A stretch of 63,313 nt of DNA, the filler included, from Actinomycetota bacterium (GTDB taxonomy: Bacteria; Actinomycetota; CADDZG01; JAHWKV01; JAOPZY01), in assembly GCA_025963875.1 (NCBI GenBank). It is 4 parts of 4 records of this genome, joined end to end, with 100 filler letters (N's around TTAATTAATTAA, not from the genome) between each part and the next. Parts side by side here need not be neighbours in the genome. Positions count along the whole stretch, not along the records: positions 38,569 to 63,313 come from JAOPZY010000141.1; 3 more parts are not named here. One strand, 5' to 3'. This document shows, piece after piece, positions 60,001 through 63,000 of the stretch (position 1 is its first letter; each line of letters begins with the position of its first letter). Made by a program: the position numbers.

Positions 60001-63000
60001 TCCCGGAGGTCGAGGTCGGCCGGCTCTACACCCGTCTCCCGTGCCCGGGCCACCAGGCGCTCGAGGGCACGGTGCAACTCGTCGGCCCCGCCGTAGTTGA
60101 TGGCAAGGCTGATGACGTTGCGCCGGAAGTCTGCGGTCTCGTTCTGGATCTTGTCGATGGCCGCCAGCAGCGACGGAGGCATGCCCTCGGGAAACCCGGC
60201 CCGGGCGGCCTCGGCCTCCATCCCCTTGGGCGGACCATCCCGGCGGCCGATGTGCAGCACCTGGACCTCCTCCTCCACCGCCTCGGGCAGCAGATCGAGG
60301 ATCCACGACTCGTAGAGCGCGAAGAGCGTGGCGACCTCCTCGGGGGACCGCTTCCAGTTCTCGGTGGAGAAGGCCCACATGGTCACCGTGTGCACCCCCG
60401 CGCGGCGACAGAAGCGGGCGAGACGGCGGGCCACCTCGAACCCCTGGCGGTGGCCCTCGATCGTCGGCAGGCCGCGCTCCCACGCCCAGCGCCGGTTCCC
60501 GTCGGGGATGACGGCAAGGTGGGCCGGGATCCTGGCTCCCTCGAGTCGCTGTAGCTGGGCGGAGCTTGTCGGTTCCATTACTCCAGAACGGGGACCCGAT
60601 CGATGATCAGGCGGGTGAGGCGTTGCAGCGAGTCCCGCGCCGGTCCCTCCGGGGCGCCGTCGAGGCAGGCGAGGGCCTCGTCGACGTGCTCCGCGGCGAC
60701 GCCGAGTGCCCGCTGGAACGCTCCCGTGCGGACCACGGTCTTGCGGATCAGGTCGACGTCGGGCTGTGGGGTGCCGAGCTGGTCGGCGAGGGAGGGCTCC
60801 GCCTCGACGGCGTAGAGCAGGGGGAGGGTGTAGACGCCGTCCCGCAGGTCGGTGCCGGGCGGCTTGCCGAGGTCCTCCCTGGTGGCGGACAGGTCGAGCA
60901 GGTCGTCGGCGATCTGGAAGGCCATCCCGAAGGCGGCGCCGAAGAGGCGCAGTGGCTCCGCCTGGTCCGCGGGGCACCCGGCGAGCACGGCCCCGAGGCG
61001 GGACGACGCCTCGAGCAGCGCGCCGGTCTTGTCGTCCACCGTCGCATAGTAGTGCTCGACCGGACGCCGGCAGTCGTAGAGGTGCTCCAACTCCCGCACC
61101 TGGCCCTGGACCACCCTGGCGATGGCGTCGGCAAGGACCCGGGGCACCTCGCCGCCGACGTCGGCGGCGATGCTCGAGGCCTTGGCGAAGAGGAAGTCCC
61201 CGACGAGGATCGCCACGATGTTGCCCCACTTGCCGTTGGCGCTGGGGACGCCCCTGCGGGTGTCGGCCTCGTCGATGACGTCGTCGTGGTAGAGCGTCGC
61301 GAGATGGGTGAGCTCGATGGCCGCCCCCGTCGAGTCCGCCCGAGGGTTCACAGTAGTATCCGGCGCCTTGAGGGGCGCCCCCTTGTCCTTATCCGGCGCC
61401 TCGAGGGGCGCCTCGGGGGAATCCGACCACAGGCGGGACGAGAGCGCCACCAGGGCCGGCCGCAGGCGCTTGCCGCCGGCCTTCGTCAGGTAGCTGGCGC
61501 TCTCGGTCAGGAATGGGGTGCCGGCAGTGGAGGCCTGAAGGAGGATCGTCTCCACCCGCTCGAGGTCGGGAGCGATGGTCTCCAGGACGTCGGCGACCTC
61601 GTCACGCGAGAGGGGCTCCACTAGTCGAGGCCCGCCGGGAGCGGGAAGTGGACATCTTCGGTGGCCACGGTGACCTCCTCGACATCGCCGTACCCCCGGT
61701 CATGCAGGGAGGCGACGACCCGCTCCACGAGCACGTCGGGCGTGGAGGCCCCCGAGCTCAGACCGATGACCTCGGCCTGGGTGATCCAGTCGGGGTCGAT
61801 CGACGTCTCGTCGGAGATCAGGTACGCAACGGTCCCCGCCTCGCGGGCCACCTCGACAAGGCGGTTCGAGTTGGAGGAGTTCTGCGAGCCGACGATGAAG
61901 ACCAGGTCGCTGCGCGCCGCCAGCGCCTTGACCGCCTCCTGGCGGTTCTGGCTCGCGTAGCAGATGTCGTCATGCTTGGGACCGACCATGGCCGGGAAGC
62001 GCTGACGAAGCGCCTCGACGACCTCGACGGTGTCGTCGACGGCAAGGGTCGTCTGCGTGAGGTACGCGACCCTCTCGGGGTCGGCGGCGGCGACGTTCGC
62101 GACGTCGCCCGGACCCTCGACGACCACGATCCGATCCGGGGCCTCCCCGGCGGTGCCCTCGATCTCCTCATGGCCGGCGTGGCCGATGAGGAAGATGGTG
62201 CGGCCACCCTTGGCGAAGCGTTGCGCCTCGACGTGGACCTTGGTCACCAGGGGGCAGGTGGCGTCGACGACCTTCAGGTGCCGGCGCCCGGCATTCTCGT
62301 GCACCGCGGGGGAGACACCGTGGGCCGAGAGGACACAGACGCCGCCCTCGGGCACCTCGTCCTCGCTCTCGACGAAGACGGCGCCCTTCTCTTCCAGGCC
62401 GCGCACGACGTGGAGGTTGTGGACGATCTGCTTGCGGACGTAGACCGGGGGCCCGTAGCGGGTGAGGGTGCGCTCGACGATCTCGACGGCTCGCTCCACT
62501 CCTGCGCACCAGCCACGGGGCGCCGCGATGAGGATCTTCCGCGCCATCACATCTTCCTAATCTTTGGCTGCCCTGTTTTACCGGGCCTGACCTTCCCTGG
62601 ACCCCACCCGTCCAACCCTCCCCCACCCGAATCACCGGGTTTGAGCGGGCGCTCAATCTAGATCGGCTCCGGTACCTCTGTCAAATCCCGGATCCCCTCG
62701 GAGTCCTTGGCCGTCGCCTTGGCCGTCGCCTTGGCCGTCGCCACCTTGACCGCCTCCTCGAGGAGGGCGTCCACCATCCGGTCCGCCGGGACCCAGCCGA
62801 TCTGGCGGCCACGGGAGAACAGCAGACCCCGGCCGGGCCCCGCAGCGATGCCGACGTCGGCGTCGCGGGCCTCGCCCGGCCCGTTCACCTCGCACCCCAT
62901 GACCGCGATCTGCACCGGTGGCAGCTTTAGCTCCTCGAGGCGCTCCATAACCTGCTTCGTCAGGGCCACGACGTCGAGCTCCGCCCTCCCGCACGAGGGA

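Follow-up and report, generated by a model that had tools for sequence, protein, structure and literature searches.

The palindromic repeat R1 is probably a REP-like, non-autonomous interspersed DNA repeat that has spread in trans and whose arrays are resized by slippage. Filled and empty sites in aligned genomes show what appears to be recent and independent copying of R1 to new chromosomal sites in two sister species of an uncultured soil Actinomycetota genus. The genomes compared are the source metagenome-assembled genome (MAG; G000, 94.6% complete), its sister genome (G001, 98% complete, DNA identity approximately 85%) and further relatives, among them G002 of the same genus. The window is the whole stretch of DNA analyzed here (63,313 nucleotides), and the features located in it are collected in Table 1.

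The R1 Unit

The R1 consensus is CCCGA-GGCGCCCCTCAAGGCGCC-GGATAAG. Its conserved block of 27 nt consists of two GGCGCC arms, which form a 6-bp GC stem around the 6-nt loop CCTCAA, bounded by CCCGA on one side and GGAT on the other. A loosely conserved, A-rich and purine-rich tail brings the full inserted unit to approximately 30–33 nt. Folded as single-stranded DNA, the second unit of the synthase gene (Table 1) forms the GGCGCC/GGCGCC stem, with energies of −7.7 and −8.1 kcal/mol for the two strands.

A search of G000 for the core, GGCGCCCCTCAAGGCGCC, at up to two mismatches gave 122 matches at 104 loci (90 with no mismatch, 21 with one and 11 with two), the same count as in the survey, against one match for the reversed core and 1–7 for each of eight shuffled cores. 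The window holds five matches where 0.01 would be expected. At zero, one, two and three mismatches the core is found 90, 21, 11 and 26 times and the shuffled cores 0, 0.4, 4 and 49 times; decayed copies of R1 therefore form no tail.

Single units occupy 88 of the 104 loci, and the remaining 16 are arrays, 14 double and two triple; this breakdown, like the 33-nt spacing of 10 of the 18 adjacent pairs (range 29–37 nt), agrees with the survey's finding. Adjacent units have the same orientation in every pair, 18 of 18 in G000 and 33 of 33 at the G001 loci compared, so that 51 of 51 are head-to-tail. The units of an array share locus-specific tails, and half-unit derivatives are also present.

No Rfam family matched the R1 copies in the window, and neither the core, its complement nor the encoded peptide turned up in a text search of the literature. 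The idea that GGCGCC acts as a restriction site was dropped, the hexamer being neither avoided nor enriched genome-wide (observed/expected 1.03).

Table 1. R1 cores and associated features in the window.
Feature	Position	Strand	Evidence
trans-Polyprenyl (heptaprenyl-type) diphosphate synthase, 347 aa	60578..61621	-	ORF; PF00348 at residues 37–280, E 2.8e-59
Variable loop-coding segment, residues 68–93, two R1 units	61343..61420	-	Alignment with empty alleles
R1 core, synthase unit 1, one loop mismatch, read PEAPLEAPDK	61395..61412	-	Core search
R1 core, synthase unit 2, perfect, read KGAPLKAPDT	61362..61379	-	Core search; hairpin fold
R1 core in hybrid sensor kinase, read in frame, linker between receiver (396–508) and Hpt (567–648)	1602..1619	+	Core search, codon model, Pfam
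Intergenic R1 copy, divergent genes (C92:5946)	35125..35142	+	Core search
Intergenic R1 copy, divergent genes (C93:12490)	51058..51075	-	Core search

Distribution among Genomes

A 22-mer chosen from R1 for this study occurs 70 times in G000, 86 times in G001 and not at all in 39 other relatives; the survey had used a different 22-mer, and its counts of 95, 135 and 3 are therefore not comparable with these number for number. At up to two mismatches the core has 208 matches in G001 and six in G002, the latter being one real array of three units and three two-mismatch matches, while G003, G004 and G005 yield 2–6 matches, all with two mismatches, which is background. A 20-mer of R1 was absent from the 400 other genomes of a sample of the phylum. 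R1 is thus abundant in two genomes, present as one array in a third and at background in the other genomes searched, and the restriction to the genus claimed earlier holds.

Plasmid and phage collections contained no match to R1. One IMG/VR contig carries the repeat; its R1-bearing end is chromosomal-like and 97% identical to a G000 contig, C156, over 326 matching bases, with two units where G000 has one (C156:8909).

Filled and Empty Sites

The comparison of sister genomes took in 73 R1 clusters of G001. Both flanks could be mapped to one G000 contig in 60 cases, and 55 of these have no core in G000, which substantiates the reported polymorphism between sister genomes. Five loci carry a core in both genomes; one of these cores sits approximately 100 nt from the G001 position, so the truly shared loci number four. 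At these four the 27-nt block is perfect in both genomes although the flanks are only about 85% identical. An intact block amid flanks that differ by approximately 15% is not expected of a purely selfish, decaying element, and suggests that selection, gene conversion or recurrent hits on the same sites have been at work.

At clean junctions of single cores (n = 7) the insert measures 33 nt in six cases, and 75 nt in the seventh, which contains a second, degenerate unit. Clean double junctions (n = 6) measure 66 nt in three cases, and four inserts of 30 nt lie in genes. Orthologues without exactly the insert were found for copies on C73 (frame F1), C82 and C5 (frame R1), C140 and C176 (frame F2) and C49 (frame R0), and the empty site reported at C82:6622 was seen again. 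G002, G004 and G005 were free of R1 at every site checked.

The earlier caveat that no target-site duplication is seen stands, and can now be put statistically. The longest common substring of flank and tail was 3.49 against 3.38 in controls, with no flanking direct repeat above chance, and a gap-slide test for duplication or microhomology gave 0.71 against 0.97 in controls (P = 0.81), in junctions compared across approximately 15% divergence, where a duplication of 1–3 nt or a short target word could escape detection. Empty sites are not more R1-like than nearby DNA (P = 0.84), with no seed and no recognizable target motif. Insertion guided by homology or microhomology is unsupported by the gap-slide and empty-site tests. 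The alignments thus show R1 insertion apparently proceeding without target-site duplication, microhomology or a recognizable target motif.

These sites bear on two readings in which R1 does not insert at new places. R1 could be a minisatellite (VNTR) only, with one or few origins and changes in copy number by replication slippage. Its head-to-tail arrays with a modal period of 33 nt and shared tails, the variation of unit number at fixed sites and the half-unit deletions between direct GGCGCC arms are what such a history would leave. But a single unit stands at 88 of the 104 loci, and the loci are scattered among unrelated genes on many contigs; at 55 of 60 G001 loci the G000 counterpart is a complete empty site, free of any R1-like seed; G002, G004 and G005 lack the unit wherever checked; and a first unit cannot come from slippage. 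This makes the minisatellite reading very unlikely. Slippage, raised as a caveat in the survey, explains the tandem variation but cannot explain 104 dispersed loci.

Alternatively, R1 could be a word like the DUS/USS uptake signals of Neisseria and Haemophilus, enriched by biased uptake and recombination. It is genus-specific and nearly invariant, and it occurs in and between genes in several reading frames, as such a word might. Filled and empty alleles, however, differ by a block of 30–33 nt and not by word-creating substitutions, tandem head-to-tail arrays are unexpected under an uptake bias, and the copies number only approximately 100–200. We regard an uptake signal as highly improbable, and retain insertion of a REP-like repeat as the preferred reading.

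Copies within Genes

In G000, 31 of the 122 copies, at 26 loci, are internal to genes, whereas called coding sequence makes up approximately 87.5% of the contigs; this shortfall is a purifying filter. The internal copies are read in five frames: F0 in 14 cases, F2 (GAPQGAG) in 10, R0 (RRLEGR) in three, and F1 (RPSRRR) and R1 (SGALRGAS) in two each. The commonest reading, F0, is a linker-like peptide of 10 residues rich in Pro, Ala and Lys.

An independent codon model places 19 copies in one open frame scoring above 10 on both flanks; the 19 in-frame copies of the survey are thereby recovered, in 16 ORFs and not the 15 genes it had given. A unit lies within the Pfam envelope in seven genes, as previously counted, and the envelopes themselves were seen again (methyltransferase, trehalose phosphatase, GT4, BAAT-N, GFO/IDH, serpin and polyprenyl synthase). 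Orthologues of the confirmed host genes lack exactly 10–12 residues. Counted from core positions, array spacing is a multiple of three in six of six cases in genes against six of 12 elsewhere, and the unit is stop-free in five of six frames. In-gene copies survive only if the added length is a multiple of three and the frame is stop-free, and those that survive lie in loops or linkers. That the unit is itself adapted to coding was considered and rejected: by our own estimate five or more frames are open in approximately 70% of random 30-mers of 69% GC content, and the intergenic periods include 31, 32, 34 and 37 nt.

Unit number varies at four loci, namely the synthase, serpin and GT4 genes and C156:8909; GT4 homologues carry 0–2 units, as do serpin homologues, for which the same range had been reported. 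Because units in confirmed genes are read in five frames, 55 of 60 loci are filled in one genome and empty in the other, and metagenomic alleles of three genes differ in unit number, R1 is, by all indications, a DNA-level insert and not a peptide module. The same three lines of evidence support the original claim that the repeat has spread between genes and, in frame, inside them.

The opposite case would be a Pro/Ala/Lys-rich linker module that spreads as coding sequence, with the intergenic copies being unannotated genes. The predominance of F0 (14/31) and the resemblance of its peptide to a flexible linker would fit. Orthologue-verified genes nevertheless use four other frames on both strands, approximately three quarters of the copies lie outside genes or at their edges, and the intergenic periods just listed are not multiples of three. 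A protein-level module is scarcely conceivable on this evidence.

The Polyprenyl Synthase Gene

The two units reported at C93 22794–22844 are those of the PF00348 gene in the window (Table 1). Here the filled segment takes the place of 9 nt that encode Cys-Gly-Pro in the empty allele, so that the gene is longer by 69 nt and its product by 23 aa. Orthologues in G001, G002, G004 and G005 have the empty allele in both DNA and protein alignments. The units lie in the loop directly before the DDxxD helix; the motif itself, D113–D117 (DDVID), is invariant among homologues. Solved homologues align at residues 20–64 and 99–343, leaving the intervening stretch unaligned. In an AF2 model (mean pLDDT 88.2), residues 67–92 are coil, with a block pLDDT of 55–62, flanked by helices 53–66 and 93–112. 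The insert is thus predicted to occupy a tolerated position, a low-confidence coil between two confident helices.

Homologues, including metagenomic alleles, have 0–5 units and lengths of 324, 334, 345–347, 356, 368 and 379 aa, which reproduces the earlier ranges (0–5 units, 324–379 aa). A search of genome contigs with the synthase returned distant relatives only (at most 41% identity). Among metagenome contigs there was one close locus (L163, two units), the other 79 loci listed being at most 41% identical. Contigs of four soil runs compared with window positions 60900–61900 end at the units or pile up on them, and none bridges an empty or differently filled site.

Copies between Genes

Approximately three quarters of R1 copies lie outside genes or at gene edges, and their placement is not neutral with respect to transcription. 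Of 74 classifiable loci, only four are flanked by a convergent gene pair (background 15%, p = 0.009, a depletion), and 21 are flanked by a divergent pair (background 15%, p = 0.002, an enrichment). Co-directional intergenic loci are sense in 35 cases and antisense in 14 (p = 0.004), and the R1 strand matches the local majority gene strand at 45 loci against 18 (p = 0.0009). At many loci the unit follows a stop codon and precedes the next ribosome-binding site. A Shine-Dalgarno sequence with a start codon is found within 120 nt 3′ of the unit at 38 loci of G000 and 5′ of it at six; the corresponding G001 numbers are 24 and six. In a GC-skew strand test, 23 loci agreed and 27 disagreed, in a MAG whose skew is co-oriented with genes only 47% of the time.

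Such biases could mean that R1 is a functional cis-element under selection, either an intercistronic or 5′-UTR RNA hairpin that affects the stability, processing or translational coupling of mRNA, or a DNA site of two GGCGCC half-sites to which a protein binds, with the in-gene copies being collateral. The sense and majority-strand biases, the excess of gene starts 3′ of the unit in both genomes, the intact 27-nt block at the four shared loci amid flanks about 85% identical and the absent tail of decayed copies all speak for this proposal, which overlaps with the REP-like reading and differs from it only in what keeps the copies uniform. Against it, 55 of 60 orthologous sites differ between the sister species, and any single R1 site is therefore dispensable; the relatives G002–G005 manage without the unit; the copies in enzyme loops have no obvious role there as an RNA or DNA signal; and neither the Rfam search of the window nor the genome-wide frequency of GGCGCC (observed/expected 1.03) gives a sign of such a function. 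A cis-element as the primary explanation is, in our view, rather unlikely.

Mode of Spread

The caveat that no mobilizing enzyme is seen also stands. Y1_Tnp (PF01797) matched 6 of 14 control genomes but none of the five searched here (G000, G001, G002, G003 and G005). IS110 (PF01548) had no match in G000, and G001 yielded nothing beyond a sub-threshold fragment; in the Y2 search the control itself returned no match. A retron or reverse-transcriptase source was dropped since RVT_1, with two matches in G000, is absent from G001, the genome richer in R1 copies. A link to a TnpB-type IS was likewise rejected: one copy begins 10 nt past an R1 pair on C26, which we take as coincidence, as two sister copies compared were without R1 and the end of the IS is unrelated to R1.

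Under the REP-like reading, primary spread would depend on an enzyme that acts in trans without leaving a duplication. An HUH/Y1-like single-strand hairpin transposase is one candidate, some other nuclease or recombinase a second; the enzyme may be either missing from the incomplete assemblies or of an unrecognized type. Once a first unit is in place, the unit number would rise and fall through slipped-strand mispairing or through unequal recombination between units, which could have produced both the 0–5 units of the synthase and the half-unit deletions between GGCGCC arms. The bias along transcription and 5′ of gene starts would reflect selection acting at the transcript level or a cis role acquired secondarily, and not the insertion step.

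We advance only tentatively a bolder version, in which R1 would be an active mobile element of approximately 30 nt, among the smallest known, moved by a non-RAYT enzyme possibly new to repeat mobilization. It would be transcription-oriented and would continually add loops of 10–11 residues to enzymes, its loci then behaving as contingency-like VNTRs. If this is true, the genes common to G000 and G001 and absent from R1-poor G002 would identify a new mobilization system.

Comparison with Known Repeat Families

Among known repeats R1 comes nearest to the REP elements (intragenic REPs among them), the RPEs of Rickettsia and the MIRUs of mycobacteria, and it departs from each in several defining features. 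REPs are described as GC-rich imperfect palindromes of 21–65 bp in more than 100 copies, lineage-specific, strain-variable and without target duplication, some lying wholly within ORFs, where the residues are added in loops or protein ends (PMC3733652, PMC3184786). In size and copy number R1 agrees, with a hairpin block of 27 nt, a unit of 30–33 nt and 122 (G000) and 208 (G001) copies. Two REP super-families are distinguished by a GTAG or CGTC tetranucleotide at one end (PMC3733652), whereas the R1 consensus, checked by eye, has neither on either strand. The RAYT (PF01797) was not found in G000, G001, G002, G003 or G005, which include incomplete MAGs; CGTC REPs are described as likewise lacking a dedicated transposase (PMC3733652). 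REPs are reported mostly downstream of coding regions (PMC3733652), with co-directional or convergent ORFs on either side, while R1 is under-represented between convergent genes and over-represented upstream of genes. The hosts also differ, REPs being found in Proteobacteria and R1 in an uncultured soil genus of Actinomycetota. REPINs and BIMEs are built of inverted REP pairs, which fold into a larger hairpin, or of alternating clusters, unlike the 51 of 51 head-to-tail pairs of R1.

RPEs are described as palindromic selfish repeats that occupy intergenic DNA and also interrupt, in frame, numerous unrelated housekeeping genes, whose products are thought to remain functional because the insert lies at the surface (PMC10969869, PMC3184786). 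R1 resembles them in being in frame in many unrelated genes, with empty orthologues for the synthase and for the genes on C73, C82, C5, C140, C176 and C49. Each RPE, as described in these sources, encodes one conserved peptide (PMC10969869, PMC3184786), as opposed to the five frames of R1. Size and host set the two apart: RPEs measure approximately 105–150 bp and add 35–50 aa in a reduced intracellular genome, whereas R1 measures 30–33 nt and adds 10–11 aa in a free-living, high-GC soil bacterium. R1 further differs in forming tandem arrays of strain-variable number.

MIRUs occur in head-to-tail tandem arrays whose unit number varies among strains. They are described as GC-rich elements of 40–100 bp with internal inverted repeats, at approximately 40–50 dispersed loci, intergenic in operons, with ORFs overlapping their neighbors and direct repeats flanking a filled site, and they serve in strain typing (PMC3184786). 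R1 belongs to the same phylum, forms 16 all-direct arrays with variable number at four loci, and points with transcription (sense bias 35:14), at many loci after a stop codon and ahead of the next ribosome-binding site. It differs from MIRUs in size, at approximately 33 nt, and in having no flanking repeats. It is also far more uniform in sequence, and approximately one quarter of its copies are well inside genes.

MITEs such as Correia, ERIC, RUP and QMITE are described as small non-autonomous repeats capable of in-frame fusion to ORFs (PMC10969869, PMC3184786). R1 shares these traits, but MITEs are typically AT-rich, approximately 70–500 bp long, and have terminal inverted repeats and DDE-made duplications, whereas R1 is a single GC hairpin of 30–33 nt with no duplication. 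CRISPR arrays alternate repeats of 23–50 nt with unique spacers of about the same length, usually over many units. R1, in contrast, leaves only approximately six variable bases between 27-nt blocks, and its arrays in G000 have at most three units, with 88 of 104 loci single.

Significance

Selfish palindromes that lie in frame within genes are a textbook oddity of Rickettsia, and proteobacterial REPs add scattered cases. R1 provides a case in a free-living, high-GC, uncultured soil actinobacterium, with a unit three to five times shorter. The family appears young: filled and empty alleles, and alleles with 0–5 units, coexist in public soil metagenomes. Since assemblies break at R1 and protein lengths differ by multiples of 10–11 residues, clustering and annotation of these lineages can be misled. 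With no RAYT found, no duplication and head-to-tail arrays, the mode of R1 movement is now a well-posed question. One DNA word translated in five frames within enzymes amounts to a natural loop-insertion scan of proteins, among them a polyprenyl synthase, a serpin and glycosyltransferases.

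Sequence, fold and copy number of R1

The core of the hairpin-forming repeat R1, GGCGCCCCTCAAGGCGCC, has 122 matches at up to two mismatches (90 without mismatch, 21 with one, 11 with two) in the genome under study (G000; 3.84 Mb, 69% GC), against a single match for the reversed word and 1–7 for each of eight shuffled words. This recount agrees with the survey's finding of 122 copies at 104 loci, which comprise 88 single units, 14 double and 2 triple arrays. In the window, five core copies occur where 0.01 would be expected.

Alignment of all copies defines a conserved block from −5 to +21 (CCCGA, the core and GGAT), followed by a weaker, A- and purine-rich tail with a consensus of about ATAAGA. 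As single-stranded DNA, both strands fold into a GGCGCC/GGCGCC stem with a loop of 4–6 nt, at energies of −7.7 and −8.1 kcal/mol (z −1.9 and −2.9). Adjacent units are always head-to-tail (18 of 18 pairs in G000 and 33 of 33 in the loci examined in the sister genome, G001), and their period has a mode of 33 nt and a range of 29–39 nt.

Taxonomic range and age

A 22-mer of R1 is found 70 times in G000 and 86 times in G001, which belongs to the same genus and holds 208 core matches at up to two mismatches; in 39 other relatives it is absent, and the reversed control gave no match. G002 (same genus, 82% complete) contains one genuine three-unit array and three two-mismatch matches. Three further relatives, G003–G005, have 2–6 core matches each, all with two mismatches, which is the shuffled-word background (G003 and G007 are unpublished genomes and serve only for negative or background counts). 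A search with a 20-mer was negative in a phylum sample of 400 other genomes, and the confinement to one genus proposed earlier stands. Plasmid and phage collections gave no match. In IMG/VR, R1 occurs on one contig; at one end of it (L330, 1–1058), the final 326 nt match C156 of G000 (8609–8932) at 97% identity and carry two units where C156 has one. The first 700 nt, which include a tRNA-Asn, are AT-rich (35–56% GC) and without a match in G000, and the junction is located inside a G000 ORF. Either the assembly of L330 is chimeric, or an island has been inserted in a close relative.

G000 and G001 share about 85% DNA identity. The 64 loci fetched from G001 represent 73 R1 clusters, 60 of which have both flanks on one G000 contig. 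For 55 of these 60, part of them in poorly alignable intergenic DNA, the orthologous position in G000 and the 60 nt on either side are free of the core (up to three mismatches); one of the remaining five is really about 100 nt off, leaving four shared. The mismatch spectrum has no decayed tail, with 26 matches at three mismatches versus 49 expected from shuffled words. Hence almost every R1 copy is much more recent than the species split, and the family expanded independently in both lineages.

Mode of insertion and candidate enzymes

Fourteen junctions between G001 and G000 are clean. Among those with one core, the gap is 33 nt in six of seven, the seventh being 75 nt with a second, degenerate unit; among those with two cores, it is 66 nt in three of six. 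The gap slide at the 14 junctions averages 0.71 nt, compared with 0.97 nt in random 33-nt windows (P = 0.81), and R1 therefore inserts with neither detectable target-site duplication nor microhomology, in accord with the survey, in which no duplication had been seen. Flanks and tails share no excess of sequence (3.49 versus 3.38 in shuffled pairs), empty sites are no more R1-like than DNA 120–400 nt away (P = 0.84), and no target consensus was seen 5′ of the unit.

This junction pattern, with no duplication and no target consensus, rules out a DDE-type MITE and fits enzymes that leave no duplication, namely HUH/Y1, IS110-like or IS91-like, although none of these was tied to R1. Y1_Tnp gave no match in G000, G001, G002, G003 or G005 while control genomes matched, and the IS110 search found none in G000; in the Y2 search, the control itself stayed silent. 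Reverse transcriptase was rejected as the source of R1, its presence not tracking the repeat.

Seven genes of G000 (on C26, C240, C117, C6, C147, C167 and C186) are TnpB-type, with a strong match to the C-terminal domain PF07282. Three of them (C26:8594–10145, C240 and C117) have a near-identical left end, unrelated to R1, directly after CCTAG, which suggests an IS200/IS605-like family. On C26 the element begins 10 nt past an R1 pair. The assembly may simply lack its transposases, because this IS family also needs a Y1 TnpA, which was not found in the G000 assembly.

Formation of arrays

Units of one array have a common, locus-specific tail, some arrays are perfect 33-nt duplicates, and half-units occur that have lost 12 nt between two GGCGCC arms. 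These features point to slippage or unequal exchange following a first insertion. Counted from positions, the period is divisible by three in all six in-gene cases and in 6 of 12 elsewhere; the multiple-of-three periods within genes are the result of a selective filter and no built-in property of the unit.

The synthase gene and its insert

Features of the window
Feature	Position	Strand	Remarks
N runs	17010–17109, 29080–29179, 38469–38568		Joins between MAG contigs (C89 ... C92, C93), so that neighbourhood across them carries no meaning
tRNA gene	11988–12060	+	Rfam scan
Guanidine-I riboswitch	24845–24974	−	Rfam scan, 75.1 bits, gathering score 63
ORFs flanking the synthase	59793–60570, 61621–62550	−	Putative cis-prenyltransferase (UppS-like) and IspH, by their motifs
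Polyprenyl synthase ORF, 347 aa	60578–61621	−	PF00348 at residues 37–280, E 2.8e-59
R1 core, perfect	61362–61379		Within synthase gene, read KGAPLKAPDT
R1 core, one mismatch	61395–61412		Within synthase gene, read PEAPLEAPDK

The two units in the synthase gene had been placed at C93 22794–22844, which is exact, since window positions 38569–63313 are contig C93. Their cores are 33 nt apart. The orthologues in G001, G002, G004 and G005 are uninterrupted and have Cys-Gly-Pro in place of S68–P93, a net gain in G000 of 69 nt, or 23 residues. Metagenomic homologues 90–96% identical outside the insert carry 0, 1, 2, 3, 4 or 5 units at this single site and measure 324, 334, 345–347, 356, 368 and 379 aa, respectively, in line with the 0–5 units and 324–379 aa reported earlier. 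Sources of the homologous proteins are named as Actinomycetota, and the synthase stretch is present in soil-metagenome runs from 15 studies. One homologue (P0110, 598 aa) is a fusion of PF01255 with PF00348.

In an AlphaFold2 model (67 sequences, mean pLDDT 88.2), residues 67–92 are coil (block pLDDT 55–62) between helix 53–66 and helix 93–112, the latter running into the invariant DDVID at 113–117. Solved homologues align over residues 20–64 and 99–343 and skip the insert, which together with the model places the units in a loop on the surface of a fold that is otherwise intact.

Reading frames of copies inside genes

Genes were called with a self-trained codon model, which assigns about 87.5% of the sequence of R1-bearing contigs to coding regions. 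Internal copies, at least 28 codons from both called-gene ends, number 31 of 122 (26 loci). In the sense frames, 14 are read in F0 as a 10-residue peptide, 10 in F2 (GAPQGAG) and two in F1 (RPSRRR); in the antisense frames, three are read in R0 (RRLEGR) and two in frame R1 (SGALRGAS). The sixth frame contains TGA. Since a single DNA word is translated in five frames, on both strands, a module at the protein level is excluded.

Host reading frames are confirmed by Pfam. As the survey had found for seven genes, units lie within Pfam envelopes: those of a methyltransferase (two units), a trehalose phosphatase, a GT4 glycosyltransferase, a BAAT-type thioesterase, a GFO/IDH oxidoreductase, a serpin and the synthase. 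A linker between domains carries the unit in two other proteins, a hybrid kinase and one of PAS-GGDEF-EAL type. The serpin carries 0, 1 or 2 units in populations, matching the earlier range, and the antisense-read GT4 insert likewise 0, 1 or 2.

Orthologues were fetched for six further genes. In those on C73 (frame F1), C82 and C5 (frame R1) and C140 (F2), flanks align well, relatives lack the 10–11 residues, and the insert in DNA is a 30-nt block. The C176 gene (F2) is empty in G002 and has a half-deleted unit in G001 (L320). A sensor kinase on C49 (R0) has one degenerate unit in G000, about three, likewise degenerate, in G001 (L323) and none in G002 or G005. Some in-gene inserts, those of C49 and C176, are therefore older than the species split and decaying. 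The array at C235:21428–21511 consists of three units after a His_Phos_1 domain whose match covers just positions 1–90 of the 194 in the profile; in the same region of G001, a lone unit is found about 100 nt off. The gene that holds this array may be truncated or remodelled. Protein loops tolerate in-frame copies, in five reading frames.

Gene context

Of 74 classifiable non-internal loci in G000, 35 lie between co-directional genes in sense and 14 in antisense orientation (p = 0.004), 21 between divergent genes (background 15%, p = 0.002) and only 4 between convergent genes (background 15%, p = 0.009). R1 shares the strand of most local genes at 45 loci and opposes it at 18 (p = 0.0009); its strand is unrelated to GC skew, itself an uninformative measure for this MAG. 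A ribosome-binding motif and start codon of a long coding ORF lie within 120 nt on the 3′ side at 38 loci versus 6 on the 5′ side in G000, and the corresponding numbers in G001 are 24 and 6. Many units occupy the space from a stop codon to the next ribosome-binding site, or lengthen the upstream ORF at its C-terminus. At the four loci common to G000 and G001, the 27-nt block is perfect in both species. These biases and intact shared blocks suggest that the transcript is under selection or that R1 has a secondary cis role; alternatively, the context bias may stem from transcription-linked insertion.

Comparison with known repeat systems

REPs are described as GC-rich stem-loops of 21–65 bp (PMC3184786), mostly with a GTAG or CGTC tag, GTAG REPs accompanying RAYT transposases and CGTC REPs having no dedicated one; they are reported mostly downstream of genes, often as inverted dimers, and in several species a variable number lies wholly within ORFs (PMC3733652). 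The classic in-frame palindromes are the Rickettsia RPEs of about 105–150 bp (PMC10969869, PMC3184786), and MIRUs, of 40–100 bp, are described at mycobacterial operon junctions with ORFs overlapping neighbour genes (PMC3184786). A full-text literature search for the R1 core, its complement and its peptide found no paper.

R1 behaves like REPs, RPEs and MIRUs yet misses defining features of each. Unlike REPs, it has no GTAG or CGTC tag, no RAYT was found, its units never form inverted pairs, and it prefers the opposite gene context. RPEs and MIRUs are longer than R1, which has neither duplication nor terminal repeats and so is not a MITE. R1 is a genuine repeat: young, lineage-restricted and REP-like, it enters as a 30–33 nt block, and its arrays are slippage-driven.
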